64,000 bases of DNA from a virus (lineage: Duplodnaviria; Heunggongvirae; Uroviricota; Caudoviricetes). Each line of letters begins with the position of its first letter. The first letter of the stretch is position 1. Both the position numbers and the translations under genes were made by a program. The stretch covers positions 32,001-96,000 of IMG/VR virus record IMGVR_UViG_2718218168_000001. One strand, given 5' to 3'. Below, piece after piece: positions 380 to 64,000 of the stretch. The notes beneath the pieces were generated by a model, which searched no databases, had not been told where the DNA came from, and saw only the letters and a list, made by a program, of their open reading frames with translations.

Positions 380-419
380 AATGGCAGCCTCCTTTTGCTA
401 ATTTAAGGAGCTACCGCGT

Positions 420-530
420 GAGGTCTCAATCTCAATGGCGGTAGCACTGACTGGGTTGAGACTACCGGCGCAAAAGGGAACCGGCCTGCCTTTCGGCAGC
501 CCAGCCAGCACTACCATTGATCTCTGAGCT
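420..530 (-). ncRNA. Putative c4-like antisense RNA region (copy 1)
   Basis: Leader upstream of icd with hairpins (ggtag...ctacc; ctgcc-tttc-ggcag) and motif TTGAGAC (456-462) complementary to direct repeats GTCTCAATC at 423-431 and 612-620. Ends not determined. Confidence 0.3.
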
Positions 531-719
531 AAACGCTACGTATGGCTGTGCGATGGCATGACACAAAAAAAGACGCTTTTGGCGTCTGTGTCGCCTTTTG
601 CATTATCCGGGGTCTCAATCCCGGCACCCGTTTTAATGAGGTGCCTGATAAGCATAAACCGAAAATGCCACAAGGCGCAAGAGGTCAGGTTCAATGTAAC
701 ATCGGTAGCTAAAAAACAC

Positions 720-736
720 AATTTATTAGAGCAAAT
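720..736 (-). promoter_or_regulatory. C1-repressor-type operator
   Basis: aatttattagagcaaat; reverse complement matches ATTGCTCTAATAAATTT at about 15 of 17; upstream of the c4/icd/ant-like module. Confidence 0.6.
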
Positions 737-738
737 AT

Positions 739-2223
739 TCATTCATTAAGCCATGCCAGAGCTTCATCAACCTGCGCTTCGTCTTCGACGCTAAGCACTT
801 CATCCTGGGGAACATAATCCGCCAGCATAGCGAAACAATATGTATCCCAATGGTCTGGTGAGTGCAGGTTGAGTTTTTTCTTCATATCCTCCTTACTCAT
901 CACCTTCCATTGACCTGCGGAGTTAATCCCTACAGGGATTTTCGACGCTTCCTCAATAGTTTCATTACCCTTATCCAGTCTCATACGACCAGATTTTACG
1001 GCCTCTGCGGCTTGAACATTGGCATAAGCACGTTTATCAAAGTACAGGCTCTTATCTTCACGGCTATGCATCTTTTTACCCCAGCGTATACGCTGTACGG
1101 TAATACCATAATACTCGTACATCAGATCCGCCGTTGCTTTACCCAGGCCATCGCCGTCTATCGCTATGGTGATATTGGGGAATCGCTCAGGATTACATTC
1201 TGCGAAAATTTTGGCGGCAAGCTGCGTTTCTGTAACGTCTGTGTATTCCAGCATTCGATAGTTGATTACACGGCGTTTATTTCGCTGGCCGGACACCATC
1301 ATGATATTGATAACGGACTTATCCCGTCCCGTACCACCAGCAACGTCCACACATGCAAGCCAGCCCCATCCTTTGGCAATCTTGACTTTCCGCCGCGTTG
1401 CACGTTCAACCTCATCACGTCCAAGAAGGAAGCCATCCTGTGATTTAGGGAATAGGCCGCGTACCTTAATCATGTACATAGGGTTATCACGCCCGCCGTA
1501 CTCCGCCAGCTTCATTTTGATAAATGCTGGCGTTACCAACGGTGATTCCTCACTGTTAAGCGTGATCGCCGTATAAACGCCATCAGGGTTACCAGGACGC
1601 TTGGCCAGTTTATGGTGTGTATCGTAGAAATAGCCGCTTGGGCGTGTAGGCTGTGACAGCAATAAGATGCGGTTATCCTGTCCGGTAAGAGCACCGGTGA
1701 TGATACCGAAAGCTCTATCACTGACACCGGAGGCTTCATCGATAATATACAGAAGATGATCTGCGTGTTCACCGGCGAGAGCTTCTTCACTTCCCAGACG
1801 AAAGCCCTTCGGTACTACAGTCCATACACCTTTACCAGTAATCTCATAGAAAGCGGTTTCTGTCAGAACAAAATAATCAGCAAGCCATGGGAAACGGCTG
1901 GTGGCAGTAGCCCAGTTTATCTTGATGTACTTGAATATACCGGTCATTACCTGCTGAATTTTGTTCGCAACGATAATGGCACGGGCACCTGGATACATGA
2001 TTATGAACAACATGATCATGATAGAAGTCATGTCTGATTTCCCGGTACCGTGACCAGACGAAACAGATGTCTTGCTACCCTGTTCCTGCACAGACTCAAT
2101 AATCAGATCCTGCTGCCAGGTAGGTGTTTTGCCGAACAAAACATCAGCGGCAGCAATCCAGTCATAACGATATAGCGCCACCAGCTCGCGCCAACGTGGA
2201 TCCGTTACGCAACTTCTGGCCAT
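739..2223 (-). CDS. pacB: Terminase large subunit (PacB-like)
   Basis: 494 aa; Walker-A-like [11 protein letters not shown]; C-terminal nuclease-like region; directly downstream of and overlapping pacA. Confidence 0.85.
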
Positions 2224-3416
2224 TAATCATCATCCCCGTATAGCTTGCGGGTAACTTCTTCGTCTTCCTCCTCGTCTTCGTCCAGGTCTTGTTCCAGCCA
2301 TGGGTCGTTTGATACACCTTCAGTATCAACATCTCCATAACCGCCTGTATCAACGATATCGGCGATTTCTTCCCTACGCTGCTCAATCCACAATGCGGCA
2401 TCGGCGCGGCGGTTGGCGGCCCGTTCTCGCGCAACTTTGTCCAGATCTTCAAGAGAAGGACCACCGACGGCAGTTTGCCTTTCCTCATCATCGGTATTGG
2501 TCTTAGGAGCACGCAGATCGGCTTTGATTTGCTCCAGCATCAGGGGCGGCACTTTCCCGCCATGCGCCTCGATAAATTCAGCTGCTTCCAGCACTGACCA
2601 GTTATTTTCACGCTTTCGTTCGTATGCCAGCTTAACAATGCCAGCTTGCCCCATAGACAAAGCGTGCTTTTCCGCCTCCCGGCTTTCTTTTCGATAGTTA
2701 TTCCGGATGCTGTAAATGGTGTTGATCAGACTGCTTATCTGCGCGGAACAGCTGTTTAGCATGCTCGCGATACGGTATTCAGGCGGAGTACCTTCATCAT
2801 CGGCTTTTTGCTGATCGCGCATTTCCTGCACCAGGCGAATACACGTATCCCTGGCGTTCTCCAGCATAAGGAGATGAGAAAGAGACTTTTCCAGAAGAGT
2901 GGTTTCCAGAACATCGGCCCCGGACCGACGCAACATAGCGCGCGCGGCCTTCCGCGCTTCAACGTTATCTATCAGGTAATCGCCAGCTTCGAATTCAAAG
3001 CGTTCACCATCATCATCCAGGGTGTCGCGTTCCAGGCGATCACGCAAGGTCCGGTGGGCACGGGTGATCACGTCATGATCATCAGAACGATCATTTATGC
3101 GCTTATTTTGGCGCTTCGCATTCTCGACTGCGACACTGACAATGGCATTAACCCTTTGTTTTTCTGCTATTTCAGCCGCAATGTGATCACCGGAATGTTG
3201 ATCATTAGAGTGATCAATGATCATGCTTTTTAGTGGCTTCCTGACTGGCTTATTTGGCTTGCGGCTGTCCGTAGTCCTGGTGTCTTCTTTGAAGGCACGG
3301 AGATAACGACGTGCGGTATTAGGGTTAAGATTAAACTCGGCGGCATACTGTGCGATGGTGTAACCACCATCTCGCGCCAGGCGAGCAAAATTCTTCTTGT
3401 GATCGTCCCAGGTCAC
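2223..3416 (-). CDS. pacA: Terminase small subunit / pac-recognition protein (PacA-like)
   Basis: 397 aa; N-terminal HTH-like region, acidic C-terminus; gene body carries the clustered TGATCA pac-type repeats. Confidence 0.8.
3064..3223. other. pac packaging site: two clusters of TGATCA-type hexamers (3 + 4 GATC sites) inside pacA
   Basis: GATC at 3065, 3077, 3089 and TGATCA at 3184, 3199, 3211, 3218; two clusters about 100 bp apart, the P1 pac layout of Dam-methylatable hexamers. Confidence 0.7.
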
Positions 3417-3451
3417 TTATGCTTCCTTTCGTAAAAACTCTTTTTGACGCG

Positions 3452-3472
3452 AGGGTAACGAAAGTCACATGT
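3452..3472 (-). promoter_or_regulatory. Possible late-promoter-like element upstream of pacA
   Basis: Minus strand reads ACATGT-GACTTTCGT-TACCCT; shares GTGACTTTC with the element at 38895-38915 but has a poor -10. Confidence 0.3.
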
Positions 3473-3501
3473 CAAAAGGCCCGGAACGGGCAAGCAATCA
3501 A

Positions 3502-3954
3502 TCAGATACGTGCGGATGTGGCATTACCGTAATGACGGTGCTGACGGGCCACCTTATTGAAAAGTTGACGCGCCATTACCCAAGGCTGGTGCTCCCGGCG
3601 TTCCTTTTCGTCCTGCGTCATATAGAGTTCGTTCTGGAGTTTTTCATCAAACCGGCGCGGAGCGCGGCTACGGCGAAAGAATTCAGGATTCAGAGAGTGG
3701 ATCTGAAATCTACGTGGGCGTGTACTGTCATCTATCAAAACAGACGAATACTTAGACACAGCGATAGCCTTTAAGCGCAGATAAACATCGCGCTTATCGA
3801 CATCCAGATGCGGGTATTCCTTTTCAAGAATTGCTGCGAGTTCTTTCGCTGATAGAAGAGATTTAGTGCGGATCATGTAATCCGCAATCTCGTACGATGT
3901 TATTCGTGAGTGATTTATTTCCATGAAGTGGCGTCCCTGCCAGTTAAGTAACAT
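3502..3954 (-). CDS. lpa: Late promoter activator-like protein (Lpa position)
   Basis: 150 aa; sits between a C1-type operator and pacA, the place P1 gene 10 (lpa) occupies; assignment by position and size only. Confidence 0.5.
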   Translation of the reverse strand: MLLNWQGRHFMEINHSRITSYEIADYMIRTKSLLSAKELAAILEKEYPHLDVDKRDVYLRLKAIAVSKYSSVLIDDSTRPRRFQIHSLNPEFFRRSRAPRRFDEKLQNELYMTQDEKERREHQPWVMARQLFNKVARQHRHYGNATSARI

Positions 3955-4026
3955 CCTGTCACCTACTGATTAGCCCATGTCAACTAATCAACGTGGAATA
4001 TAATACCCTCGATTAAAGAAATAGCA

Positions 4027-4043
4027 ATATATTAGAGCAATTT
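4027..4043 (-). promoter_or_regulatory. C1-repressor-type operator upstream of the lpa-like gene
   Basis: atatattagagcaattt; reverse complement AAATTGCTCTAATATAT; overlaps a second partial half-site (atagcaat). Confidence 0.6.
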
Positions 4044-5086
4044 TATCTAACACTCGACGAATGACTTGTGATAACGCCCACTCCAAGCGCGTAATCAAAG
4101 AACAATCGTTGATGCATCGCCAACCTACCGTGCGTCTTCTCCCAATTATCGCGGTCACGCTCAATATCACGCTGGCATGACTGGCACAGAGGAATTGCGT
4201 AAATGTCATGCGCGCATAATCGACTATGACGAACGATATAAGGCGTAATGTGAGCGCCAGCTCCCGCAGCTCCACACCCACAGCATGGACGGGAAGCAAC
4301 AAAGTCCATGTACTCAGGTAATTTTAGCGATTGCAGTTTTGGTATTTTGAAATGCGCCATGCCAGGGTCGGAGTCAACATCCACAGGGCATACTTTTGCA
4401 CGCATCGGCGCGGCGCGTTCTTCCATCATCTGAACATATGCTGTAGCGCGATCGTCATACGGGCGAATATCCGCCTCTTTCAGAGGTCCGCTATCCTGCG
4501 GAGTAGCCTTCATCTTATTTATTGATATGCGGCAGACTTCTTCCGGCATCAGGTGCATCATGTTGCGCATGAAAGCCCACCAGCACAGCTCCTGAATACT
4601 TAAATCATGGCTATTTGAAAGGCCCATTTCCTGACGGGCGACATCCAGTATCCAGTTAACGCGATTATTGTGCAGCGTTTCTTTCAGCTCATTAAAACCA
4701 CGCATCCGATAATGGTTATCGTGATGCCAGCACAACAACACCGCGCTATTGTCTCGTTCAGCGTGGACAATATGATTGTCACACCAACTACGATCTGCGG
4801 CCTGGCATTGACCCTCTTTCCTACGCAACCACGCCACCAGCGCGTCAATTCCACCAATACGGCGAAACAGTTCATCGCTGTTAAAAAACGGCTGCAACGC
4901 CTCATTTGTTGCCATGGTTTGCTCGGTAACAACGAGGCCGTCTTCCATGTGCTCGATTAACTCACGCGGCACCGGCTCCATAATAAATTTACGGCCAGCC
5001 TCCACCAGCTTTCTGACCTCCTGATCCACTTTGAACGTGGCGAGGCCAAGCTCTTTCTGTACAAAGGGAGTAATTACGGCTTTCAC
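4043..5086 (-). CDS. Cysteine-rich protein of unknown function (PdcB position; zinc-binding or HNH-like C-terminus)
   Basis: 347 aa; C-terminal [12 protein letters not shown]...C..C...CQSCQ cluster; follows phd-doc-pdcA-like genes. Confidence 0.45.
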
Positions 5087-49261: not shown

Positions 49262-49319
49262 AGTTACGGCCTCACAATCAGGTTTAACAACCTGCTACCC
49301 GCTGCTAAACAGGTGGCAG

Positions 49320-49410
49320 GACGTGACGGGGTTAGCAGACTGGCGATTGTGAAACCAGCAGGCCGAAGCCTCCCCATCACGCCCCACCATAATTTGGGCG
49401 TAACGCGGTT
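49320..49410 (-). ncRNA. Putative c4-like antisense RNA region (copy 2)
   Basis: GTTAGCAG (49331-49338) is complementary to CTGCTAAAC direct repeats at 49302-49310 and 49481-49489; ends not determined. Confidence 0.35.
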
Positions 49411-49577
49411 TTACGGACACAAAAATACCGCAATATCGGATATCTGCGGCTGTCCGCACAATCATTCAGGCTGCTAAACCCGGTCGCAGAATTTGCTACG
49501 ACGGCGAAACTATAAGCCTGAACGATTAAAAGGTCAATATGATGCGAAAAGATAGCATTCACGACTTAAAAATACAA

Positions 49578-49592: not shown

Positions 49593-49873
49593 TGAGTGTC
49601 GTGCAATAGAAGTATTATTTGTGATGAAAAATAATGCAGAGGGATATTGTTACTTTAAGATGGATATCAATAGTCGATACATAAATTAAGTTAGCAATAA
49701 ACTATTAACTTAAGAAATAATGCAGATGGTGAACTTGTCTCTGACTTTTCAGCTATACACAATAAGTTAGGGGTTGCTTATAAAAAGTTGATTAATTGAT
49801 ATAAGTCAATGGGAGTATTCTTGTTTACTTTCCGTTCTCGTGGTAACTTCTCGCCGGTTTTTGTTTTTCTTGG

Positions 49874-50395
49874 ATGATTCTTATGTCTAAAAAGTATACT
49901 TTATGCGCTCTTGTTGTATCTGCAATTCTTCTTTCTGGGTGTCAATCTAGCGGTGCTGATTATGCTGCCGATGTTTATGATACCGCTCAATTGAATTCGA
50001 AGCAGGAAACAAAGACAGTCAATATTATCTCTGTGCTTCCAGCTAAAGTGAAAGTTGATAATAAAGCTAATAAAGAAGCGGCACAGACATTTGGTGCGGT
50101 ACTGGGAGCTGTTGCTGGGGGCGTTGCCGGTTATAATGTTAAAGGCACATCGACACTGGGTGCTGTAGCTGGCGGTACTGGTGGTGCGGCTCTTGGTGCA
50201 GCGGCTGGTTCTTTGGTTAGTGATAAAACAATTGTTGAAGGTGTTTCACTGACTTATAAAGAAGGAACTAAGGTGTTCACTTCAACTCAAGTTGGTAAAG
50301 CATGCCAGTTTACAACGGGGCTTGCTGTGCTTATTTCAACTAAAGATAATGAAACTCGAATTCAGCCAAATGCTACTTGTCCAGAAAAGAAATAA
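49874..50395 (+). CDS. Lipoprotein with glycine-zipper region
   Basis: 173 aa; lipobox LLSGC; GAVLGAVAGGVAGY...GAVAGGTGGAALGAAAGS; AT-rich. Confidence 0.6.
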   Translation: MILMSKKYTLCALVVSAILLSGCQSSGADYAADVYDTAQLNSKQETKTVNIISVLPAKVKVDNKANKEAAQTFGAVLGAVAGGVAGYNVKGTSTLGAVAGGTGGAALGAAAGSLVSDKTIVEGVSLTYKEGTKVFTSTQVGKACQFTTGLAVLISTKDNETRIQPNATCPEKK

Positions 50396-50398
50396 TTT

Positions 50399-50938
50399 AT
50401 GAATAAAATTATTTTATTTCTAATCTTTTCTACGTTTAGTGTAGGCAATGCCTTGGCTAACTCGTTGCAAAGTCAAATTGCTGCTATTGCTCAAGCGGAA
50501 AATGAAGGGCGAGCTAAAGAGCAGCAAGCTGAGGATGCCAGAAAAGAACTTATTCGCCAACAAGCACAAGCTGAACGTATTAGAAGAGAAAAAGCAGCAT
50601 CTGCCGCTGCTGCACGCGAAAAACAGCGTGTTGCTGCAGAAAATGAACGTAGAGCAAAACGAGAAGCCGAGCTAGCAAATGACAAGAAGCGAGATCAAGC
50701 TTATGAGGATGAGCTTCGCAAGCTGCAACTCGAAAGCATGAAACTCGAACTGCAAGCAAAAGCGGCTCGTGTCCAGCGAGAAAACGATTTTATAGAGCAG
50801 GAGTTGAAGGAGAGAGCAGCTAAGACAGATGTAATTCAGTCTGAGGCTGATGCAAATAGAAATATTTCTACAGGAAGTAAAGATTTACTGCAAAGCGAAG
50901 GAAAAGCTAGAGAGAAGAAAGCTAGCAGTTGGTGGTAG
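50399..50938 (+). CDS. Secreted charged coiled-coil protein
   Basis: 179 aa; signal-peptide-like N-terminus (LFLIFSTFSVGNALA) then Lys/Arg/Glu-rich helical repeats. Confidence 0.55.
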   Translation: MNKIILFLIFSTFSVGNALANSLQSQIAAIAQAENEGRAKEQQAEDARKELIRQQAQAERIRREKAASAAAAREKQRVAAENERRAKREAELANDKKRDQAYEDELRKLQLESMKLELQAKAARVQRENDFIEQELKERAAKTDVIQSEADANRNISTGSKDLLQSEGKAREKKASSWW

Positions 50939-50994
50939 TAATCACTACGATTGCGAGCATACTGTCACAAATGACAACTCGTAGAATCTGTTAA

Positions 50995-52208
<1,214 letters not shown>

Positions 52209-52222
52209 ATTAAGGAGCAAGG

Positions 52223-53104
52223 ATGCTTTTACCTCTTTTCCCGCTACCATCGCGGCCAACTGAATTGATCCAGTTCCGTCAGCCAAATATTGCTGATGCA
52301 ATGCGTTTCAACTCGATAACACCGGAGGAACAAGAACAACAGACAACGGCATATTTGAAAGCCTTGCTGGCTGAACCCGCGAAACATGATCCCCTGACAT
52401 GGACGGCGCAGGACCGGATTACCGCGTTATGGTGGATATTTACCGGCTCCCGTGAAACACCGGTCGAAACATTCACCTACACCTGTAAACATTGCGGTAA
52501 AGAGCATTATTACGATTGCGATATGAATGCTCTGGCTGAAGATATCCAGGTCCTGGAAGTGGAACCGTTCATTGACGATATTGAGGTGTCTGTAGAGGGC
52601 GTGCCTTATCAATGGCGTATCGTGCCGCTTGATGGTTGGGCAATGGAAATGCTGGAGATGCGCCGTGCAGCATTGCCACCTGAAGACGGCGCGGAATTCA
52701 AAGAAGCGATCGTTGATTTGCGTTTTTGGGAATTCGCTTATCAGTGTGAACTTTATAACGATGTTAGCGGTACTCGTGAAGAGCAGGCTGAGCGTCGTTA
52801 TGAAACGATCAAACGGATGGCCATTGATACTGAATTTATGAAGCTGGCGGCACACATCCGGCTGGCTCATGAAAAGCTCGAACATGGTTTACCGTGCTAC
52901 ATCGATAAAGGCGAAATGCGTCTTCGTCTCCCGCCGCACAAATGCCCAAACCAGGATACAAAGGAGTCCACAGAGGGTGCGTATACCCGTCTGTGGGTGC
53001 CCTTTCGGGCTACCGACTTCATTCCACAGGTGGGGATTGAAAAGCTATCAGACCTTAGTGTCCAACCTGGTTTTGTATGGGGGTATACCGATTCAGGACG
53101 CTGA
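52223..53104 (+). CDS. Hypothetical tail-assembly protein upstream of sit
   Basis: 293-aa ORF; CxxC...CxxC cluster (CKHCGKEHYYDCD). Confidence 0.4.
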   Translation: MLLPLFPLPSRPTELIQFRQPNIADAMRFNSITPEEQEQQTTAYLKALLAEPAKHDPLTWTAQDRITALWWIFTGSRETPVETFTYTCKHCGKEHYYDCDMNALAEDIQVLEVEPFIDDIEVSVEGVPYQWRIVPLDGWAMEMLEMRRAALPPEDGAEFKEAIVDLRFWEFAYQCELYNDVSGTREEQAERRYETIKRMAIDTEFMKLAAHIRLAHEKLEHGLPCYIDKGEMRLRLPPHKCPNQDTKESTEGAYTRLWVPFRATDFIPQVGIEKLSDLSVQPGFVWGYTDSGR

Positions 53105-53185
53105 AAGGCTCACTGAATCCTATGCGTTTTTCCTGTTGGAGAAACTGGAAGAAAAACTTAAACCGAAGCGGTAGGCGATAAGATC

Positions 53186-56100
53186 ATGGAAAGAAAAAAC
53201 GCCAACATTGACGATGTGATAAGGACGGTTGAAACCGCCAGCGCAAAAGAGCTGGAAGAGCTTGCAGGTATTCGGGAAGCCGTTGAAGATTTGAAAGGGG
53301 GGCGAGTTGCTACAGTTGATCCTGTCTCTCGCAGTGTGTCGGCATTAAATCGCACAATCGAAAATTCCCGGCCAGACTTTGTGGCCAATGCGCCATCAGT
53401 GGACCCTATTGTTGAGGCAATGAAACGGCTTAATTTAGGGGACGTTTCTCGTGTAGTTCAGGAGGATGTTGCTCTACAGGAACCGCAGGCCAAATCAACT
53501 ACGCGAAAGGGTAAAAAACGACGCAAGAAGGCTATAACAGAAGATGTAAAGGCGCAACGGACCGAAGCAGCCGAACACGCTCGCGAAATGTTCGGTCAAA
53601 AAGGCGGTGCGCAAAAAAGCCAAAACCAACGCGATGCGCGTGGTCGTTTTATTGGAAAGTCAGGGAGTAAGGCCGCAGCGGAAGATGCCCGTGCTGAACG
53701 TGCTGAAAAGGCCAGGCGCAAAGAGGATGATGAGCGTCTAAATGCTGAATCAGGTTTATTAAAAAAACTGTCAAAAGTAGCTGAAGGCATAGGTAACCCT
53801 TCAGAGACTCGTGCCGTCGATGCGTTAGGTTATGCCGTTGCTGGTCCATTGTGGGCAGCAGGGAAGGAGCTTGGCGGGATATCAAAAGAAGTTGGTGGAT
53901 CGCTTAATGGTGCCAGAAAGTCTATTGCCGATGTGATTCGTGGCAATGACGATAACAGCCGTAGAAAAGGTTTTTTTAGGCGTAAATCGCAAAATAGTGC
54001 CGATGTCGTTCAGGTTAACACCCAAAAACGGACGGTTCAGGAACTTCAGGAGCAGACCAGCGAAATTAAAGAGGGCAATGACAAGATTCTCAGCGCCCTT
54101 GATCAGATAGCCAAAAACACCGGGAAAAAGAAGGGCGGCTTGCTGTCCAAACTATTTAGCCTGTTAGGGAAGGGGGCCGGTGGCGTCGCGTCGTTGTTAA
54201 TGGGGCGTGGCATGCTGAAAAAAGCTGGAGCACTCGCTTTTGGCGCTCTGGGGGCAAAGAAACTTGTAGGAATGCTACGCGGTGGTGGCAAGAAGACTCT
54301 CGCCCATGAAGGCGGAGATTTGGCTGCCCGGGCAGCAGGTAAACTTGGATTAAAGGCAGTTGGTAAAGGGGCGTTACGCGCAATTCCCCTAGTCGGCACA
54401 GTGGCTGGAGGTATTTATGATGCGGTAACCGGTTGGAATGATACAGAAGCGCAACGTCGAGCGTTTGGGCTTAAATCAGGACAAGATCCATCATTCCAGC
54501 AAAAAGCCGCTTATACGTTAGCTAATGTTCTTGATATGGGGGGACTGGTATCTGGTATTAGCAGCGCCATTGGTGAGGTTCTCAAATCACTTGGATTTGA
54601 GGATATCGGCAATATGTTGCAATCATTTTCGACGGAAAGTATTGCCCTGGCCATTGATAGTGGGATTACCAACTTAGAAACATATATTTCTAACCTTGGC
54701 GACACCATTTCTACCAAGTTCGATGATTACACAGCAAAGATTGGTGATGCTGTTTCAGCATGGTTTAGCGATACATCTAATAAGCTGCTTGAAAAGCTGG
54801 ATGCCATCAAAGACTTCTTTACTGTCGATAACCTGAAACAGGTTTTCAGTGATGCAATTGATAGTGCAATTGATTTCATTAAGAACCCAGGGAAACACAT
54901 TAAAGAGGCGGCTGGTAATATTTGGGATGGGGTTAAAAATTTACCAGGTAAAGCATTAGATGCAGCGGTTGATGCCGTTAAAAATACCCCTGCGGCAATG
55001 ATTGTATCAAAAATACCCAATCCGATCGGCGAGGCTAATGCGAAAGAAATCACTCCAGAGTTAAAAGCTCCGGTTAATAGCCACCAGGGGACATCTGATT
55101 CTAAAACTGAATCCGATGCCAAACAGACTAATATTGCTGCCCGCGTGATAAATGCGGCTCTGGATATGGCGAAAGATAGCAATAAAACAGTTAAAGAAAC
55201 TGCTAATCAGATTATCAATGCAAATGCCGTAGAAACGGGCAATAGCGCGTTGCAGAAAATTGATAAAGCTATTGGTCAAAATAGCTCGTCATCATCCTCG
55301 CTTAATACCACTGGCACCAGGAATGACATTCAGAAAGCTGCGGATACCTATAATAATGGCAACTTGGATGTAAAAGTCGGAAGTCTTGGCGCTGAAGGTA
55401 AGGCAAATCTCGATAAGTTGGCTCCGTATTTTGCTGAACTAGAGAATAAATATGGCCTTCCTGAAGGTACTCTTTACGCGATCGCTGCAACTGAATCTGG
55501 TGGTGATCCTAACGCAAAATCTACGCTTACAAGATCACCAAATGGAAAGCTAAGTGGTGGCGCTCTCGGAATGTTCCAGTTTACGAGCGTTGCTCGTGAG
55601 GAAACTGGATTATCCCGGGAAGATTCTTTTAATCCGGAAAAATCGGCAGAAGCTGCGGCTCTTCTCATGAGCAAGTATCTGAAGCAAGCCAATGGAGACT
55701 TAAACGAGGCCATCACTGCATATAACGCTGGGTTTGGCACTATCAATAAGTGGAAAAAAGGCACAGGTGACTTATCGAAAGAAAACCGTGAGTACGCGAT
55801 CAAGGTCAATACTCATCGTGCTCGCTATTTAGGTGGTGAAATCTATACACCTGGAGCAGGAGCACAGGGTGGGGCGCAATATGGAGTGAGGGGACCACTG
55901 CCTGATAACGCTGTTATCGATCAGTCTACTGGCCTGGCGTTTACCCCTGGTGATAGCCCGTTTGAGAAAGGCGGTCTGGTAGACAAAATCGGCAATGCTG
56001 TTGGCGTTAACGATCTGGTCAACAAATTCATGAATGGCCGGGGTATGCGTCGGGAAGTCGTTCAGGGAACGCTCGAAGAACGTGCACGAGGGAAGGGGAC

Positions 56101-56608
56101 CGCAACAGCAGCTGGCAATGTGTATGTTGATACTCCGATGCCAGTTGAAGAGGCGCGTCCGGTGGCCAGCAACTCAAGTTACTTTGACCAACTCGGCGCA
56201 CAAATGGGGATTGATGGACTATTCGATAAACTCCGCAACTCGCCGGGGATGCGGAAAAATAATGCGCTTGAACCAGCCTCCACGTCCCAGGTGACGACTG
56301 CCGCCAACGATTTGCAGCAACCAACCGGTCGTATGCAGATAGACGGACAGGTTATTAGTGACCTTGGCGGCTCCGGTGCCAAGCCGACAATGCAGTTGGC
56401 TGATAATACCGTTTCACTTGATGGTGAAACGAAGCGGCTGTTTGCGCAGATGACCTCATTGCTTGCCAGGATTGAAGAGCACACCAAAGACTCGGCGAAA
56501 GGCCAGGGAACTGTCGTAAAGGTCAGCACGCCTCAGCCGGGCGTTATGCGCACGGTACCACTGTCAATTGATGATCCGTTGATGAATGACTACGCGAGAG
56601 TTGATTGA
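53186..56608 (+). CDS. sit: Tape-measure-like structural protein with lytic transglycosylase domain (Sit-like)
   Basis: 1140 aa; Ala/Gly/Lys-rich repeats; SLT-type region AIAATESGGDPNAKS...GALGMFQF...AYNAG. Confidence 0.85.
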   Translation: MERKNANIDDVIRTVETASAKELEELAGIREAVEDLKGGRVATVDPVSRSVSALNRTIENSRPDFVANAPSVDPIVEAMKRLNLGDVSRVVQEDVALQEPQAKSTTRKGKKRRKKAITEDVKAQRTEAAEHAREMFGQKGGAQKSQNQRDARGRFIGKSGSKAAAEDARAERAEKARRKEDDERLNAESGLLKKLSKVAEGIGNPSETRAVDALGYAVAGPLWAAGKELGGISKEVGGSLNGARKSIADVIRGNDDNSRRKGFFRRKSQNSADVVQVNTQKRTVQELQEQTSEIKEGNDKILSALDQIAKNTGKKKGGLLSKLFSLLGKGAGGVASLLMGRGMLKKAGALAFGALGAKKLVGMLRGGGKKTLAHEGGDLAARAAGKLGLKAVGKGALRAIPLVGTVAGGIYDAVTGWNDTEAQRRAFGLKSGQDPSFQQKAAYTLANVLDMGGLVSGISSAIGEVLKSLGFEDIGNMLQSFSTESIALAIDSGITNLETYISNLGDTISTKFDDYTAKIGDAVSAWFSDTSNKLLEKLDAIKDFFTVDNLKQVFSDAIDSAIDFIKNPGKHIKEAAGNIWDGVKNLPGKALDAAVDAVKNTPAAMIVSKIPNPIGEANAKEITPELKAPVNSHQGTSDSKTESDAKQTNIAARVINAALDMAKDSNKTVKETANQIINANAVETGNSALQKIDKAIGQNSSSSSSLNTTGTRNDIQKAADTYNNGNLDVKVGSLGAEGKANLDKLAPYFAELENKYGLPEGTLYAIAATESGGDPNAKSTLTRSPNGKLSGGALGMFQFTSVAREETGLSREDSFNPEKSAEAAALLMSKYLKQANGDLNEAITAYNAGFGTINKWKKGTGDLSKENREYAIKVNTHRARYLGGEIYTPGAGAQGGAQYGVRGPLPDNAVIDQSTGLAFTPGDSPFEKGGLVDKIGNAVGVNDLVNKFMNGRGMRREVVQGTLEERARGKGTATAAGNVYVDTPMPVEEARPVASNSSYFDQLGAQMGIDGLFDKLRNSPGMRKNNALEPASTSQVTTAANDLQQPTGRMQIDGQVISDLGGSGAKPTMQLADNTVSLDGETKRLFAQMTSLLARIEEHTKDSAKGQGTVVKVSTPQPGVMRTVPLSIDDPLMNDYARVD

Positions 56609-56964
56609 TGGCCAACAATAACGAAATTGATCCTTTGCTGACGCTGGAGTTATCCGGCGTAAAAACGTATGAGTCCCAGGAGGAGGCCTGGGGCGCTCGT
56701 TTATATGAGTGGCTAAACACTTATCAGGGTGAGGTATACGGGGATCCGTCATGGGGCAATGTTTTACCGCAGTTTAAACACGAACCGACCAACTTGTCGC
56801 ATGTTCAAATTGCGGTTGAGGCAATGCTGTTGCAAAAACTGACGGTAGATTTACCTGACATACCGATTTCTGGCTTGTCAGTAGCCGAGGGAGATGCTTT
56901 TGATAAGTTGAAAATATCCATTCGTATCAGGGATATAACTATCACACAGGACGTGGTGCTATGA
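56605..56964 (+). CDS. Baseplate wedge protein (gp25/GPW-like)
   Basis: 119 aa; GEVYGDPSWGNVLPQF resembles the gp25/W-family core motif. Confidence 0.5.
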   Translation: MMANNNEIDPLLTLELSGVKTYESQEEAWGARLYEWLNTYQGEVYGDPSWGNVLPQFKHEPTNLSHVQIAVEAMLLQKLTVDLPDIPISGLSVAEGDAFDKLKISIRIRDITITQDVVL

Positions 56965-58394
56965 GTAAAACAACACCGACTAAAGACAGTATTCGTGCAG
57001 AGTTTGAAGAGCTTGTCGAGAAAGATTCATTCTGGTCGAAGTTTGTCGGCTCTCAATTTGTCTCGATGCTGACATTGTTTATTACCCAGATTGTCTACAG
57101 GTGCTTTCAGTATGCCGATGCGGCGCTGGCTGAAGGCTTTATATCGACCGCGACGCGGCGTTCCTCTATCCTGGCTGCGGCAGAAACGAACAGTTATGTT
57201 GGTACCAAGCCAACACCGTCATCGGGGATGATTGAGATCACCGCCACAAGTGAAGATGCCCCAGCGGTAATCCCCAAAAACATGCCTTTAATATCTGACG
57301 ACCAGTACCCTTACATGACTATGGATGTATGCAGGTTGGTTGACGGCACCGGTACGGTAGAAGTGGCACAGTTGGAAATCCAGGAGGTGACATATACCGT
57401 TACGGCAGCCAAAGAATTTCTGGAAGTCGTGTTATCAAAGGCTCTTACTGCTGTCTGCTATAAGCTGGAAGTATTCGTGACGACCGATGGGAAGACCACG
57501 CAGTGGTCTTCCAGCACTATGTTCCGGTTAGCCGGTAGTAAAAGCCAGGTCTACGTTGAGTTTTATAAACCATCCGAGCAGTTGGGGGTTCGATTCGGCG
57601 ATGGGCTAATTGGGCAAATACCGCCAGAAGGTTCGACAATTACGCTTAAGGTATGGTGCACCAACGGCGATATAACCCTGGTTGCTGGCCAAAACCTGAC
57701 GCCTGTCGATTCTGCGGCTGATTTAGCTAATTTGATTTCAGTTAAGACAACGACACCTATAACCGCAGGTACCGATGCTGAAACAACGGAGATCACACGT
57801 AACCGTGCACAATATTACCTTGCCTATGATGATCAGGTCGTATGGGGCGGGGACTATACGTATTTTCTGGTTCGTAACATCCCGGGGCTGTCCTGGGTAA
57901 AGGCATGGGGCGAAGGCCAGCAAGAGAAATTAGATGGTGCTTATAATGTTCAGAATATCAATAAGATATTTATTTCAGGATGGCATCCGAATAAAAGTCA
58001 GTCAGAGCTTGAAGAAATGATCCTGACCGCCTTTAAGAAGGTGCCGAATGAGTTGAACAAGAAATTCTCGTATAAAGAGGTCAGAAAACTACCATTTAAG
58101 ATAACCATCACCGGACGGATATCGGCAAGCCTGACCATTGAGAATGTGACCGATGAGCTGAAGTCGGCACTGGAAACAAAATTTGGGCGCGATTCAACTT
58201 TCTTTGATCCGAACCGCGTCGGAAAGTACATCCTGATTAAGAAAAAAGACGTTTGGGCGTTTATCGAAACGCTGGGTTATTTCCGCGACTTTTATCTGGA
58301 ATTTGTCGAGTGGAATGAGTCCAACGGCTTTTACGATTTCGTTTATCTGGATACAGAAAACTCCACCTTTAATATTTCGTATGAGGAGGAGTGA
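56961..58394 (+). CDS. Baseplate protein (J/gp6-like by position)
   Basis: 477-aa ORF following the W-like gene, the conserved W-J-I order. Confidence 0.45.
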   Translation: MSKTTPTKDSIRAEFEELVEKDSFWSKFVGSQFVSMLTLFITQIVYRCFQYADAALAEGFISTATRRSSILAAAETNSYVGTKPTPSSGMIEITATSEDAPAVIPKNMPLISDDQYPYMTMDVCRLVDGTGTVEVAQLEIQEVTYTVTAAKEFLEVVLSKALTAVCYKLEVFVTTDGKTTQWSSSTMFRLAGSKSQVYVEFYKPSEQLGVRFGDGLIGQIPPEGSTITLKVWCTNGDITLVAGQNLTPVDSAADLANLISVKTTTPITAGTDAETTEITRNRAQYYLAYDDQVVWGGDYTYFLVRNIPGLSWVKAWGEGQQEKLDGAYNVQNINKIFISGWHPNKSQSELEEMILTAFKKVPNELNKKFSYKEVRKLPFKITITGRISASLTIENVTDELKSALETKFGRDSTFFDPNRVGKYILIKKKDVWAFIETLGYFRDFYLEFVEWNESNGFYDFVYLDTENSTFNISYEEE

Positions 58395-59230
58395 TGCAGC
58401 GTTCCTGGTTTAATAACCGGCTTACATCAGCTAAGCAAAAGTCATTGCTCTATAAATCATTGGCTGATTTGGTTCAGTCAATGATGGACACCTTTGTTGA
58501 CCCATGGTTGGAGCGAATTACCAACCGGAAGTCTATTTTCTCCATGAGCAAGGAGGATCTGGAGACCAGGACAAATGAACTTGGCCAGTTCTTTACTATC
58601 AGAACCTCGAACTCATCTTCCGTTCCGATGTTGTTACAACAGCGGCTTGATGAGATCCACTTTAAGGGAACTGAACGTCCTATAAACCAGACAATTTACC
58701 GCGAATTTAACGGTATTTCTGTTTTATGGGATCCGATATATGCACCGGTGGACCTTGAGCGTCATCCCTATGGCACAGTTCTAATACCAGAAAGCACACT
58801 GGAGACTACCGGCGGCACATTCGGCGAGATGTTTCTGACTTCCAGAGGGATGATCAGTATTCCCATAAACGACCTGGCCCGGACAATGGGTATTACTGGC
58901 ACGATAGATCAGTCCGCAATTACAGAAGAAATTCTCAGAAAGTTTAATCAGTTCGTAAAGCCTCTACTGCCACTGCATATAGTGTTTGATGGGCTTACGC
59001 TCTATTTGTCGGTTGTTTTAAATGAACAGGCCGACATGATCACTTTGAACGAGATTTCTGATACCGAAAAAGCATTCTGCTGGTTTGAAACTTCGGATAC
59101 AACTTCGCTTACTGGAGTTACGTCGATTAGCGCCCCGATCACCGCAACGCCTGGTGGCACTATTGTGAAAGCGACACCTACGTTTGATCGCACACGCGCA
59201 GATGATTTGTTGCTGGATAGCGACGCCTGA
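58391..59230 (+). CDS. Baseplate protein (I-like by position)
   Basis: 279-aa ORF between the J-like gene and the tail-fibre operon. Confidence 0.4.
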   Translation: MMQRSWFNNRLTSAKQKSLLYKSLADLVQSMMDTFVDPWLERITNRKSIFSMSKEDLETRTNELGQFFTIRTSNSSSVPMLLQQRLDEIHFKGTERPINQTIYREFNGISVLWDPIYAPVDLERHPYGTVLIPESTLETTGGTFGEMFLTSRGMISIPINDLARTMGITGTIDQSAITEEILRKFNQFVKPLLPLHIVFDGLTLYLSVVLNEQADMITLNEISDTEKAFCWFETSDTTSLTGVTSISAPITATPGGTIVKATPTFDRTRADDLLLDSDA

Positions 59231-59257
59231 CAATCACCCCGTCCGTAGGGCGGGGTG

Positions 59258-59278
59258 ACAAGTTACTTCTCTTACAAT
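59258..59278 (+). promoter_or_regulatory. Late-promoter-like element (ACAAGT-N9-TACAAT) for the tail-fibre operon
   Basis: acaagt tacttctct tacaat, after hairpin caccccg...cggggtg. Confidence 0.5.
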
Positions 59279-59308
59279 GAGGCTTCACAACATTGATTAG
59301 GGAAAATC

Positions 59309-59743
59309 ATGTCTGACGTCTCAACAAACCTCTATAAGAGTCAGTTGTTGGACTATTACTATCAGCGGCGCGCTGAATCGTCCATTAACAAAGGCTCTCG
59401 ATTTTTAATCAGCAAGGCCGTTTTCGGTACCAGTTCACTGGTTACTAAGAAAGGAGATGGCACTTATGAGATTGGAGAACTGCCAAAGGCTTTCGATCTG
59501 GCAGAACTGACCAGTCAATTTTGCACCATCAACCTCGTCCCAACCTACTCAGGCGGGATAATTACTGTCCGAATGGACCTTGATCAAAGCCAGTTGCAGG
59601 AAGGGAAAAACTACCCATTCAACACTCTGGTTGTTCTGGATAACGAGAACAAGCCAATCGCCATTATTTGTGTCCAGGAAGACTCGCTGTATGTGGGCAA
59701 AACATATACCGCAGTTATGGCCATAAACACGACAACAGCATAA
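59309..59743 (+). CDS. Tail-fibre-operon protein (R position)
   Basis: 144-aa ORF immediately upstream of S. Confidence 0.5.
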   Translation: MSDVSTNLYKSQLLDYYYQRRAESSINKGSRFLISKAVFGTSSLVTKKGDGTYEIGELPKAFDLAELTSQFCTINLVPTYSGGIITVRMDLDQSQLQEGKNYPFNTLVVLDNENKPIAIICVQEDSLYVGKTYTAVMAINTTTA

Positions 59744-59754
59744 GGATATGCTTG

Positions 59755-62673
59755 ATGAATGACGTTACAGTTGTTACATCAGTTACTTACCCATCACCCG
59801 AGTCGTTGGCTCTGGTGGCTGATGTGCAATACCACGAACCATATCTGTCAGCCGCGCTAAACCGAAAATTCAGGGGGATTGTTGACCCGGGATTTTATGC
59901 CGGTTTCTTACCTAAGCCTGGCGGTGGGATGAACCTGTTAATCACCTCAGTGGATGGTGATAAAACCGCAGGCGCGGCGTCGGTGGATATTGGTGAATTC
60001 TACCAGGTAACTATTCAGCATCGTAAGGATATTTCTCTTGCACTTAGCGCAGGTAAGAAATATGCAATTGTGCTGAAGGGAAGATATCTCCTTGGAGAGG
60101 ATACCTATCAGGTTAATACAGCGTCACATATTCATGCGGCTGAATTTGTTACCAGAACCTATACCGATTCATATCAGTTGGGAGATGGGGAACTGCTTGT
60201 TTGTACGGTGAATATCCCTGCTGGCGTATCTGCCATTACCCAGGAGATGATTGATACATCCGAGCGTATTAACCGCACGATCGGCATTGATATTTCAGAC
60301 TCTGTAACCAGTACCAGAAGTGATGTTGCGGCAAGTTCGCTGGCGGTTAAAAAAGCCTACGATCTGGCAAAAAGCAAGTATACGGCGCAGGATGCAAGCA
60401 CAACGCAAAAGGGATTAGTTCAGCTCAGTAGCGAAACTAACAGCGACAGCGAAACAATGGCGGCGACCCCTAAAGCCGTTAAGTCTGTAAAAGATCTTGC
60501 TGATACCAAAGCGCCAATAGAAAGCCCGAGTCTGACAGGAACGCCAACCGCGCCGACGGCAGCGCAAGGTACAAACAGCACGCAGATCGCAAATACAGCC
60601 TTTGTTAAGGAAGCTATAACTGCACTTATCAACGGTGCGCCTGGCACACTGGATACGCTGAAAGAAATAGCGGCTGCGATCAATAACGACCCGAATTTCA
60701 GCACAACTATCAACAATGCCCTGGCTCTCAAAGCGCCTTTGGCAAGCCCTGCATTAACGGGTGTCCCTACTGCGCCGACCGCCGCACAGGGCACAAATAA
60801 TACGCAGATTGCTACGACCGCTTATGTAAGAGCTGCCATATCCGCATTGGTTGGTTCATCACCAGAAGCTCTTGATACCCTGAATGAGCTTGCCGCAGCA
60901 CTTGGCAATGACCCGAACTTTGCGACAACAATGACAAATGCGCTGGCAGGCAAACAGCCTCTGGATGCAACTTTAACCGCGCTCGCTGGCCTTGCGACTG
61001 GTGCAAACAAACTGCCTTATTTCACTGGTAAGGATACGGTAGCTCAGACTGATTTAACGTCAGTCGGTCGCGATATTCTGGCTAAAACAAGCACACTGGC
61101 CGTTATCCAATACCTTGGTTTAAGAGAACTCGGTACCAGCGGTGAAAAGATCCCCCTGTTGAGCACGGCTAACACATGGAGTGCACGCCAGACTTTCAAC
61201 GGCGGGATCACCGGGGCGCTGACAGGGAACGCCGACACCGCGACGAAATTAAAAACAGCCAGAAACATTAATGGCGTCAGGTTCGATGGTTCTGGTGACA
61301 TTAATATCAATACTCTGGTATCGCGCGGTCGCGTAACGGCCCTGGAGGCGAATGCACAGGGAACATCCGGGATTCAGCTGTATGAGGCATACAACAATGG
61401 CTACCCTTCCCCCTATGGCAATGTGCTTCACCTTAAAGGTGCCACCGCTGCTGGCGAAGGTGAGTTATTCATTGGCTGGAGTGGCACGAGCGGTGCCCAT
61501 GCGCCCGTACATATCCGTTCGCGGCGGGATACTGATTCTGCCAACTGGTCTGAATGGGCGCAGGTCTATACGTCAAAAGATTCAATTCCCGGCGTCAATG
61601 CCAAAGGGGATCAGGATACCTCTGGTAATGCGGCTACAGCGACCAAGTTGCAGACAGCATGTACTATCAACGGTGTCTCGTTTGATGGTTCTAAAAATAT
61701 TGAGCTAACGGTTGAAAATTTAAATCTTGAGCGAACAGTAGAATTAGCCGCTGGGTCATTGCAGAAAAATCAGAACGGCGCGGATATTCCTGGAAAAGAT
61801 ACCTTCACTAAAAATATTGGTGCATGTCGCGCTTTTCACAGTTCTATTAGTACAGGTGCAGGGAACTGGACAACGGCACAATTGATTGAATGGCTGGATT
61901 CTCAAGGGGCATTCAATCACCCATACTGGATGTGCAAATGTTCATGGTCGTACGGCAATAATAAAATTATAACCGATACTGGCTGTGGAACTATTCATCT
62001 TGCAGGTTGCGTTATTGAGGTTATGGGTAATAAAGGTGCCATGACCATCCGTGTAACAACACCAAGCACTTCCAGCGGTGGCGGAATCACTAACGCTCAA
62101 TTCACTTATATTAATCATGGTGATGCTTACGCTCCTGGCTGGCGACGAGACTACAACACGAAAAACCTGCAACCTGCATTTGCTTTAGGGCAGACAGGAA
62201 ACAGGGTTGCAAATGATAAAGCTGTTGGCTGGAACTGGAATAGCGGTGTTTATGATGCAGACCTAAAAGGCGCATCAACATTAATTCTTCATTTCAATAT
62301 GAACGCGGGTAGCTGCCCGGCTGTACAATTACGCGTGAATTATAAGAACGGCGGTATTTATTATCGTTCAGCGCGTGATGGTTATGGATTTGAGGCTGAC
62401 TGGTCAGAGTTTTACACCACAACCCGCAAACCCTCTGCGGGGGATGTTGGTGCATATACGCAGGCAGAATGTAACTCAAGGTTTATTACAGGTATTCGCC
62501 TGGGCGGTCTGTCATCTGTCCAGACATGGAATGGCCCCGGCTGGTCTGACAGGTCAGGTTATGTCGTTACGGGTTCAGTTAACGGGAACCGTGATGAATT
62601 AATTGATACAACACAGGCAAGGCCAATTCAGTATTGCATTAATGGGACGTGGTATAACGCGGGGAGTATTTAA
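59755..62673 (+). CDS. S: Tail fibre protein S (constant part plus variable part in current orientation)
   Basis: About 972 aa from MNDVTVVTSV... (ORF track starts at 59668); repeated ...TGTPTAPTAAQGTN(S/N)TQIA(N/T)TA(F/Y)V... blocks; contains a cix-like site. Confidence 0.85.
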   Translation: MNDVTVVTSVTYPSPESLALVADVQYHEPYLSAALNRKFRGIVDPGFYAGFLPKPGGGMNLLITSVDGDKTAGAASVDIGEFYQVTIQHRKDISLALSAGKKYAIVLKGRYLLGEDTYQVNTASHIHAAEFVTRTYTDSYQLGDGELLVCTVNIPAGVSAITQEMIDTSERINRTIGIDISDSVTSTRSDVAASSLAVKKAYDLAKSKYTAQDASTTQKGLVQLSSETNSDSETMAATPKAVKSVKDLADTKAPIESPSLTGTPTAPTAAQGTNSTQIANTAFVKEAITALINGAPGTLDTLKEIAAAINNDPNFSTTINNALALKAPLASPALTGVPTAPTAAQGTNNTQIATTAYVRAAISALVGSSPEALDTLNELAAALGNDPNFATTMTNALAGKQPLDATLTALAGLATGANKLPYFTGKDTVAQTDLTSVGRDILAKTSTLAVIQYLGLRELGTSGEKIPLLSTANTWSARQTFNGGITGALTGNADTATKLKTARNINGVRFDGSGDININTLVSRGRVTALEANAQGTSGIQLYEAYNNGYPSPYGNVLHLKGATAAGEGELFIGWSGTSGAHAPVHIRSRRDTDSANWSEWAQVYTSKDSIPGVNAKGDQDTSGNAATATKLQTACTINGVSFDGSKNIELTVENLNLERTVELAAGSLQKNQNGADIPGKDTFTKNIGACRAFHSSISTGAGNWTTAQLIEWLDSQGAFNHPYWMCKCSWSYGNNKIITDTGCGTIHLAGCVIEVMGNKGAMTIRVTTPSTSSGGGITNAQFTYINHGDAYAPGWRRDYNTKNLQPAFALGQTGNRVANDKAVGWNWNSGVYDADLKGASTLILHFNMNAGSCPAVQLRVNYKNGGIYYRSARDGYGFEADWSEFYTTTRKPSAGDVGAYTQAECNSRFITGIRLGGLSSVQTWNGPGWSDRSGYVVTGSVNGNRDELIDTTQARPIQYCINGTWYNAGSI
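61103..61128. other. cix/gix/hix-like 26-bp recombination site inside S
   Basis: TTATCCAATACCTTGGTTTAAGAGAA: dyad-symmetric with central AACC-TTGGTT core. Confidence 0.6.
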
Positions 62674-62675
62674 TT

Positions 62676-63209
62676 ATGATGCACTTAAGAAATATTACAG
62701 CTGGCAACCCTAAAACAAAAGAGCAATACCAGCTAACGAAACAATTTAACATCAAATGGCTTTATACAGAGGATGGAAAAAACTGGTATGAGGAACAAAA
62801 GAATTTCCAGTATGATACGTTGAAAATGGCCTATGACCACAACGGCGTTATTATTTGTATTGAAAAGGATGTTTCAGCAATTAATCCAGAAGGCGCAAGC
62901 GTCGTTGAATTACCTGATATTACAGCAAATCGCCGGGCTGATATTTCTGGTAAATGGATGTTCAAAGATGGCGTAGTGGTAAAGCGAACTTATACCGAGG
63001 AAGAGCAGAGGCAGCAGGCGGAAAATGAAAAGCAAAGACTGCTACAGCTCGTCAGGGATAAAACCCAGCTATGGGACTCACAGCTACGGCTGGGCATCAT
63101 TTCCGACGAGAATAAACAAAAATTAACCGAGTGGATGCTCTATGCACAGAAGGTCGAATCCACAGACACCTCCAGCCTGCCAGTAACGTTTCCAGAACAA
63201 CCAGAATGA
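62676..63209 (+). CDS. U: Tail fibre assembly protein U
   Basis: 177 aa; [20 protein letters not shown]...NWYEE typical Tfa N-terminus. Confidence 0.8.
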   Translation: MMHLRNITAGNPKTKEQYQLTKQFNIKWLYTEDGKNWYEEQKNFQYDTLKMAYDHNGVIICIEKDVSAINPEGASVVELPDITANRRADISGKWMFKDGVVVKRTYTEEEQRQQAENEKQRLLQLVRDKTQLWDSQLRLGIISDENKQKLTEWMLYAQKVESTDTSSLPVTFPEQPE

Positions 63210-63212
63210 GAC

Positions 63213-63240
63213 AAGGCCCGCTACCGGGCCTTAATTTTTA
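63213..63240. terminator. Bidirectional terminator between U and U'
   Basis: aaggcccg-ctac-cgggcctt hairpin with AT-rich flanks. Confidence 0.65.
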
Positions 63241-63765
63241 TTCAGGCTTTTGTGGCCATTCGGGCTTTGCCGTATCCACACGGCTGACCATAACACTGTA
63301 GCGTTCCCAGGCTTCCAGTCGGCTACGCTCCTCATCCGTCGCCATATTCAGCCTGACAGCGCGCTCCAGTGGCTGAATAACGCTTTCCGCTTCGGAAAGT
63401 AACGCGGCCTTTTGTGATTCGGCCTGTTGTTGCTGCTCGTCTGCCGTATAAATCCGTTTAACTACAGCTCCATCCTTAAACATCCACTTTCCTGAATCAT
63501 CAGCGCGGCGGTTGGCTGTAATATCGGGAACCTCAACGACGCTAAAACCTTCAGGGTTAAGCGTTGAGGCATCTTTGGTGATGGCAACAATAATATTATT
63601 TTCGTCGTATACAATCTTTATGGTGTCGTCCTGAAAGTTATTTACTTCCTCATACCAGTTTTTACCGTTTTCGGACCATAACCAGATAACATCAAAATTC
63701 TTTGTTAGCTGATATTGTTCTTTCGTTTTAGGATTTCCTGACTTAATATTTTTTAAATGCTGCAT
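63238..63765 (-). CDS. Alternative tail fibre assembly protein U' (inverted orientation)
   Basis: 175 aa; [20 protein letters not shown]..., paralog of U on the opposite strand. Confidence 0.8.
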
Positions 63766-63768
63766 AAT

Positions 63769-64000
63769 TTACACCTGTGCGACGTTATACCATGTGCCAT
63801 TGATGTATTTTTGTATTGGTCTGAAGATGGCTTCATCATCGCCATCTACTTCACCAATGATTCTTAATCCGGTAATTGCGTGTCCGGCTTTTTCATAACG
63901 ACCACCACGCGCCATCAATTGAACAACACGCGTACCCAGGCGAACATCTTTCACATAACGGGAATCAAAGTTACCGTAATCCGAGGGGTTAACACGCCCT
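63769..64000 (-). CDS. Alternative tail fibre variable part (Sv'-like), 3' portion; 5' end beyond window
   Basis: Frame open to the window edge; C-terminus ...IQKYINGTWYNVAQV parallels the S C-terminus ...IQYCINGTWYNAGSI. Confidence 0.7.
   Translation of the reverse strand, partial: GRVNPSDYGNFDSRYVKDVRLGTRVVQLMARGGRYEKAGHAITGLRIIGEVDGDDEAIFRPIQKYINGTWYNVAQV

Follow-up and report, generated by a model that had tools for sequence, protein, structure and literature searches.

The stretch of 64,000 nucleotides analysed here (positions 32,001 to 96,000 of the IMG/VR virus record IMGVR_UViG_2718218168_000001, Caudoviricetes; referred to below as the window) ends within a tail-fibre gene cluster of the kind found in phage P1. 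The late promoter LPs, gene R and the constant part of the tail-fibre gene S (Sc) are followed, inside S itself, by the recombination site cixR, beyond which lie the variable part of S and the chaperone gene U, both on the plus strand, and then a second chaperone gene, U', and the end of a second variable part, Sv', both on the minus strand and the latter running off the window (Table 1). The coordinates of the 26-bp site, the open reading frames and the other features are those of the window, and a window coordinate equals the coordinate in the public locus L007, which continues the region beyond position 64,000 and is described below, plus 49754. The features of P1 were taken from its GenBank annotation (AF234172 / NC_005856). 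Window positions 59000-64000 align with the tail-fibre operon and C-segment annotated in P7 and RCS47 at ~92% identity (query positions 1-4979). The region almost certainly represents the left two-thirds of a Cin/cix invertible C-segment and the fixed portion of the tail-fibre operon leading into it, and the tail-fibre switch found here is the textbook P1 system, which is already known.

Table 1 Features of the tail-fibre switch region and its surroundings (aa, amino acids; nt, nucleotides; positions beyond 64000 are window-equivalents)
Feature	Position	Strand	Remarks
sit, bplB, bplA, gene 16	53186-59230		
LPs	59260-59278	+	Late promoter of the R-S-U operon; outside the invertible segment
R	59309-59743	+	Tail-fibre structure or assembly protein, 144 aa; 143/144 identical to P1 gpR
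S as assembled	59755-62673	+	972 aa; Sc joined to the in-frame variable part
Sc	59755-61115	+	Constant N-terminal portion of S, ending at the crossover point; boundary according to the P1/P7 annotation
cixR	61103-61128	+	26-bp Cin crossover site, TTATCCAATACCTTGGTTTAAGAGAA
Terminal inverted repeat, left arm	61105-61303	+	199 nt; partner at window-equivalent 65454-65652
In-frame variable part	61116-62673	+	Sv by position, Sv' in P1 nomenclature; receptor-binding fibre end
Internal inverted repeat, left arm	61588-61706	+	119 nt; partner at L007 14928-15046
U by position (U' in P1 nomenclature)	62676-63209	+	Tail-fibre assembly chaperone, 177 aa
Terminator-like hairpin	63213-63242	+	AAGGCCCG-CTAC-CGGGCCTT, then AATTTTTATT; from terminator scan
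U' by position (U in P1 nomenclature)	63238-63765	-	Silent-cassette chaperone, 175 aa
Sv', 3' end	63769-64000	-	Silent and promoterless; last 76 codons and stop; runs off the window
cixL	65629-65654 (L007 15875-15900)		Inverted partner site, TTCTCTTAAACCAAGGTTTAGGATTG; identical to P1 cixL
cin	65646-66206 (L007 15892-16452)	-	Serine invertase, 186 aa; 185/186 identical to P1 Cin

The presence of a 26-bp dyad inside S resembling the Cin, Gin and Hin crossover sites had been proposed in the initial annotation, and the site is indeed located at 61103-61128, in a form identical at 26 of 26 positions to the annotated cixR of P1 and likewise to that of P7. It consists of an outer half-site, TTATCCAATACC, a TT core (61115-61116) and an inner half-site, GGTTTAAGAGAA, the dyad being imperfect, with agreement of the half-sites at eight of the 12 positions around the core. 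The site is in frame within S, the crossover dinucleotide falling in Leu codon 454, and it occurs once in the 64-kb window when up to three mismatches are allowed, compared to zero occurrences expected from shuffled sequence. The switch region had been given as starting at 61103; this is the correct position of the site, but the functional unit begins further upstream, with LPs, R and Sc.

The S protein contains tail-fibre repeats (Pfam Phage_fiber_2, E = 4e-30), and over its first 518 amino acids the fibre shows 97% identity with P1 S. The in-frame variable part agrees with P1 Sv' at 517 of 518 residues and gave a weak match to gp37_C. Both chaperones belong to the Pfam family Caudo_TAP, with E = 7e-37 for the plus-strand gene product (174/177 identical to P1 U') and E = 6e-37 for the minus-strand one (168/175 identical to P1 U). 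These genes converge, the terminator-like hairpin lying between them, and their proteins are 56% identical. The last feature before the window edge is a minus-strand frame that extends from position 63999 to a stop codon at 63769-63771, i.e., 76 sense codons open to the edge. The order described initially, in which U is followed by an inverted U' and an inverted Sv'-like open reading frame open to the edge, agrees with these coordinates and with the Caudo_TAP matches, and the related but distinct C-termini were found as described: S ends in NGTWYNAGSI and the silent frame in NGTWYNVAQV, the C-terminal regions of the two fibre ends being 38% identical over 71 residues. While the layout of the cassettes stands, their labels had to be exchanged, since the in-frame part is P1 Sv', the gene labelled U is P1 U', and the gene labelled U' is P1 U. 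In alignment with the P1 reference, window positions 61105-63980 match on the plus strand and Sc matches on the minus strand; therefore, the segment in the window is inverted with respect to the deposited P1 genome. According to this alignment, the window is in the C(-) state in P1 terms, in the same orientation as in the P7 and RCS47 records.

The remainder of the segment was read from L007 (positions 111517-134435, 22.9 kb, of contig CDDKXL010000002.1 in assembly GCA_974498345.1), which was found through the exact S protein and shows 0 mismatches to window positions 49755-64000 over 14,246 nt. The second crossover site and the invertase had been expected just beyond position 64000. Both an inverted cix site and a serine recombinase, namely cixL and Cin, are present in L007, which is identical to the window over the overlap, although they lie 1.6-2.2 kb away rather than in immediate proximity, with cixL 1.63 kb past the window end. 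Read from outside to inside, both cix cores are TT. Cin contains the Resolvase (PF00239) and HTH_7 (PF02796) domains and an N-terminal YVRVST motif; the 3' end of its gene overlaps the outer half of cixL, and the 5' end is identical at 77 of 81 positions to the annotated P1 enhancer and contains a putative enhancer. A search with the conserved 17-mer (≤3 mismatches) gave only two matches and no further cix-like site in the 22.9 kb of L007. The position of cixL at ~65371 with 636-nt repeat arms, predicted from P1 and from plasmid NZ_CP122833, was rejected because the segment is 270 bp longer and the arms are 199 nt. The repeat search in L007 placed the arms of the terminal repeat at 11351-11549 and 15700-15898 (97% complementary) and those of the internal repeat at 11834-11952 and 14928-15046 (87% complementary). 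The internal repeat encodes the motif ...GNAATATKLQTACTINGVSFDGSK..., which is common to both variable parts, and recombination at this repeat would produce hybrid fibre ends.

The silent Sv' frame begins in L007 with a stretch reading ...ILNLGLRELGTSGEK... and is open from the window edge to cixL, giving about 628 codons in total. Truncation of the S' copy, which was looked for specifically, is not present, the frame in L007 being open all the way from cixL to the stop codon. The gene calls for the silent cassette beside cin in L004-L013 vary in length (431, 493, 504 or 609 amino acids), because this cassette has no start codon of its own. A truncated Sv', as suggested by the 493- versus 609-residue calls, was considered and discarded: the frame is open in all of the loci, and only the choice of start codon differs.

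As evidence on orientation, public assemblies were used in place of reads. In silico inversion of L007 between the two cores (4,526 bp) kept the reading frame and resulted in a fusion protein of 1,077 amino acids, the first 513 residues of which are as in S. The assembled S protein was found exactly on 68 public contigs, and the 1,077-residue protein with Ala in place of Thr was found exactly on 20 public Escherichia coli contigs; this Ala variant is the version of the sister loci L004-L006 and L009. An exact look-up of the window's own 1,077-residue variant (with Thr in VETRAF) in the public collection gave no match. In the contigs with the flipped fusion, the gene order is S'-U'-(U)-(Sv)-cin, with the neighbourhood and cin unchanged. 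When flipped, L006 becomes equal to L011 and L008 to L012, with 0 mismatches in 9,648 nt in each case, compared to ~3,000 mismatches in the unflipped state. In both pairs, the mismatches between the repeat arms (n = 5) confine the exchange to positions 61112-61175, i.e., to 64 nt containing the core (61115/61116). In addition, the segment is present at 99.8% identity in the complete plasmid NZ_CP026938.2, where it is flipped with respect to the flanking DNA. Public DNA that is otherwise identical contains the segment in either orientation.

Several points weigh against interpretation of the region as a functional Cin/cix switch. The orientation evidence is derived from public assemblies and not from the reads of this sample. 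The exactly matching pairs are formed by sister loci, while the window copy differs from the flipped L011 by one single-nucleotide polymorphism before a downstream indel. Moreover, cixL, cin and most of Sv' were read from L007, which is assumed to be the source of the window or its clone; the 64-nt breakpoint interval, taken alone, is compatible with homologous recombination; and Cin carries a single substitution compared to P1, M51I. This substitution and the four changes in the 81 nt of the enhancer region would fit an architecture that has become frozen, with an inactive invertase or enhancer and with only the assembled S/U form being made. P1-like plasmids in which cin is truncated or the C-segment is degraded are on record (PMC6906374), and the two copies of the element on the 196-kb contig that includes L007 have the same orientation. 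However, cin is full length and retains the catalytic motif, neither cix site differs from its P1 counterpart, and the same cin region is found in both orientations, some pairs being identical over 9.6 kb once flipped. The silent cassette, moreover, has ~628 codons without a stop, which would be unexpected after long disuse. We therefore regard a frozen switch as very improbable.

Of somewhat lower probability still is the possibility that the flips seen in public assemblies result from RecA-dependent homologous recombination between the 199-nt inverted repeats and not from the action of Cin at the cores. Inverted repeats of ~200 nt are substrates for homologous recombination, and the breakpoint could be narrowed only to 64 nt; nevertheless, in both exact pairs this interval is the outermost third of the repeat, with the core included, and a 99%-identical Cin and P1-identical cix sites are present, the latter exactly at the segment boundaries. 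Given Cin and the cix sites at these boundaries, RecA-dependent flipping is not needed as an explanation, and inversion in P1 itself is Cin-dependent (PMC6906374; bioRxiv 10.1101/2022.07.24.501295). By far the least probable alternative, which can practically be set aside, is multiple inversion of the p15B Min type, in which more than two crossover sites shuffle several tail-fibre ends. P1-like plasmids with Min-like invertases and p15B-like fibres do exist (PMC6906374), and the silent cassette is a mosaic; at the same time, there are only two cix-like sites in 22.9 kb (17-mer, ≤3 mismatches), only two cassettes and two chaperone genes, and the invertase is Cin, with 185 of 186 residues identical to P1 Cin.

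Returning to the Cin/cix switch, we infer from homology to P1 that it acts as a host-range switch, as the initial annotation had suggested, providing two fibres directed to different surface receptors. Directly observed are the sites, reading frames, invertase and enhancer sequence, as well as both orientations in public DNA that is otherwise identical; how Cin acts together with Fis, how fast the segment flips and which hosts are reached would follow what is known from P1, Mu and Hin biology. Since LPs, R and Sc are located outside the segment, Sc would be read through cixR into whichever promoterless variable end faces it, each of these ends carrying its own chaperone gene behind it. Cin, stimulated by Fis at the enhancer inside cin, would cut the two inverted 26-bp cix sites in a staggered manner at their 2-bp cores and swap the strands by rotation, and the 4,526-bp segment would thereby be flipped. 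Sc would thus be fused in frame either to Sv/U, giving the 972-residue fibre assembled here, or to Sv'/U', giving the 1,077-residue fibre. Because either variable end would be fused to Sc, populations of lysogens are expected to release virions with two receptor specificities; with slow inversion, mixed virions would be released by lysogens and would not be released in lytic bursts. The mechanism of Cin/cix and its role in host range have been described for P1 (PMC6906374; bioRxiv 10.1101/2022.07.24.501295), in which the S' fibre is reported to provide transduction of Shigella flexneri 2a and 5a and of E. coli O3, with the O-antigen being needed (bioRxiv 10.1101/2022.07.24.501295). By analogy, P1 S' is probably the best guide to the specificity of the in-frame cassette.

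The silent cassette differs from its P1 counterpart. Silent Sv' (L007 14015-15887, window-equivalent 63769-65641, minus strand) contains ~480 central residues that are unrelated to P1 Sv. Matches to P1 S are limited to the ~60 residues that directly follow the site, a 41-residue motif and the last 75 residues (87% identical). The last 307 residues of the cassette are 96.7% identical to the fibre of the Mu-like Yersinia phage vB_YpM_39, its N-terminal part is ~70% identical to P2-like fibres, and among the phage records none covers 80% of the cassette. Judging from these matches, the silent cassette is a mosaic and not P1 Sv, consistent with ordinary modular exchange of fibre tips, and this allele is already present in dozens of public assemblies. 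There is, in our estimation, about an even chance that this lineage swapped the K-12-type P1 Sv for the 623-residue mosaic and now toggles between the P1 S' specificity and a second one, having been left without a fibre for rough K-12-type lipopolysaccharide, and that the 199-nt repeats are a by-product of this swap.

In comparison with known systems, the layout is that of the P1 C-segment, LPs-R-Sc-cixR-[Sv U / U' Sv']-cixL-cin, with both cix sites identical, Cin identical at 185 of 186 residues, one cassette corresponding to P1 Sv'/U' and the chaperone of the other corresponding to P1 U. The differences are that the deposited orientation of P1 is opposite to the C(-) orientation of the window and that P1 Sv is replaced here by the mosaic. 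The segment is 4,526 bp long compared to 4,256 bp in P1, and its terminal inverted repeats are 199 nt compared to 636 nt in P1 and 198 nt in P7; the greater length of the segment and the shorter repeats than in P1 are due to the difference between the silent cassette and P1 Sv. P7 (AF503408) and RCS47 have the same orientation as the window and are collinear with it at ~92%. P7 shares the short terminal repeats and the identical cix sites, but its U is split into Ua and Ub, and its silent Sv' is 447 amino acids long, compared to ~623 amino acids here.

The Min system of p15B has six crossover sites and many arrangements; p15B has a P1-related backbone, and its Cin-like invertase likewise swaps tail-fibre ends, whereas only two sites and two cassettes are found here. 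The Salmonella Hin/hix system has an invertase of the same family, 26-bp sites with a 2-bp core and a Fis-dependent enhancer. Hin, however, flips a promoter, while in the present case the end of a coding sequence and a chaperone gene are exchanged behind a fixed promoter. The G-segment of Mu (Gin/gix) is a switch of this type and uses a serine invertase belonging to the same family, and window positions 61757-63768 (the 3' part of Sv, U and U') are 90% identical in DNA to Mu, in a match that overlaps the Mu genes S, U, U' and S'. The P1 annotation also notes similarity to Mu for a part of the cin region. Mu differs in the host phage, in the Sc part and in the sequences of its sites (gix). According to work cited in bioRxiv 10.1101/2022.07.24.501295, Mu and P1 complement each other only partially.

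With regard to the fixed upstream part of the operon, LPs consists of a -22 box at 59260-59268 and a -10 box, TACAAT, at 59273-59278; both boxes are identical to those of the annotated LPs of P1 and P7, with a single mismatch in the spacer. A GC-rich hairpin, CACCCCGTCCGTAGGGCGGGGTG, is located at 59235-59257, directly after gene 16 and immediately upstream of LPs, and is kept in P1 and P7 with one change in the loop. The Pfam search of the window proteins gave no family for R and none for the 76-residue Sv' fragment, while PF26881 is listed for the identical R gene in L007.

On the basis of its similarity to known elements, the window as a whole is a part of a P1-like (Punavirus) phage-plasmid of E. 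coli, with its map running in the reverse direction to that of the P1 record. Over bases 1-50000, it is collinear with RCS47, JL22, SJ46 and P1 at 97-98% identity, and the genes matched there include pacA/B, ban, dmt, genes 23 and 22, and parAB. Collinearity at 97-98% identity also extends to P7. In the phage, plasmid and complete E. coli collections, no near-identical record was found, the best match for window positions 58000-64000 being 96.6%.

Some additional observations were made on the window and on the contig that includes L007. Many RefSeq plasmid records name the 477-residue baseplate protein encoded at 56961-58394 'bleomycin hydrolase', and newer ones use 'baseplate J/gp47 family protein'; the P7 record has it as bplA, and it gave a weak Gp6-like Pfam match. 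The former name looks like a propagated misannotation. Two loci of C4 antisense RNA were recognized by Rfam, at 434-521 (-) / 566-644 (-) and at 49309-49394 (-) / 49463-49515 (-). The first of them, at the window start, adjoins an isrK-like RNA, and the second contains a1/b1 target sites of the kind typical of the ImmI region in P1. When window positions 1-25000, which contain the first C4 locus, were used as the query, many Stx-converting phages were matched, and a second, lambdoid-type antirepressor control module may be located near the window start. Three tRNA genes, all on the minus strand, are found at 24753-24828, 26469-26544 and 26547-26622, with the anticodons CAT (called Met), TGT (Thr) and GTT (Asn), respectively.

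Contig CDDKXL010000002.1 (196,389 bp) contains two copies of the element, L006 and L007, located 98,221 bp apart, with their C-segments in the same orientation. Over 22.9 kb, these copies differ by one single-nucleotide polymorphism and five single-base indels, and these differences are accompanied by sit, lydB and darA gene calls that are split or shortened in one or the other copy. Two of the indel sites are inside the window (51586 and 53297), and the window copy has an intact sit of 1,140 amino acids. The contig looks like either a plasmid dimer or an assembled concatemer, with errors of the long-read type.

Inversion of the P1 C-segment by Cin at the cix sites has been known since the early 1980s. 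Because the system has been known for so long, and because the sites, the invertase and one of the cassettes found here are essentially identical to those of P1, the discovery value of the switch itself is small. It has practical consequences for annotation, since the orientation in the assembly determines which of the tail fibres is called as a full-length protein, the silent cassette being called as a truncated 'phage tail protein', and protein databases contain 'phage tail proteins' that are arbitrarily truncated at the N-terminus for the silent orientation. As the gene call depends on the orientation, both fusion proteins should be taken into account when the host range of P1-like phage-plasmids, which can carry resistance genes, is predicted. 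The variant silent cassette, finally, is a further example of how P1-, Mu- and P2-like phages exchange the tips of their tail fibres as modules.

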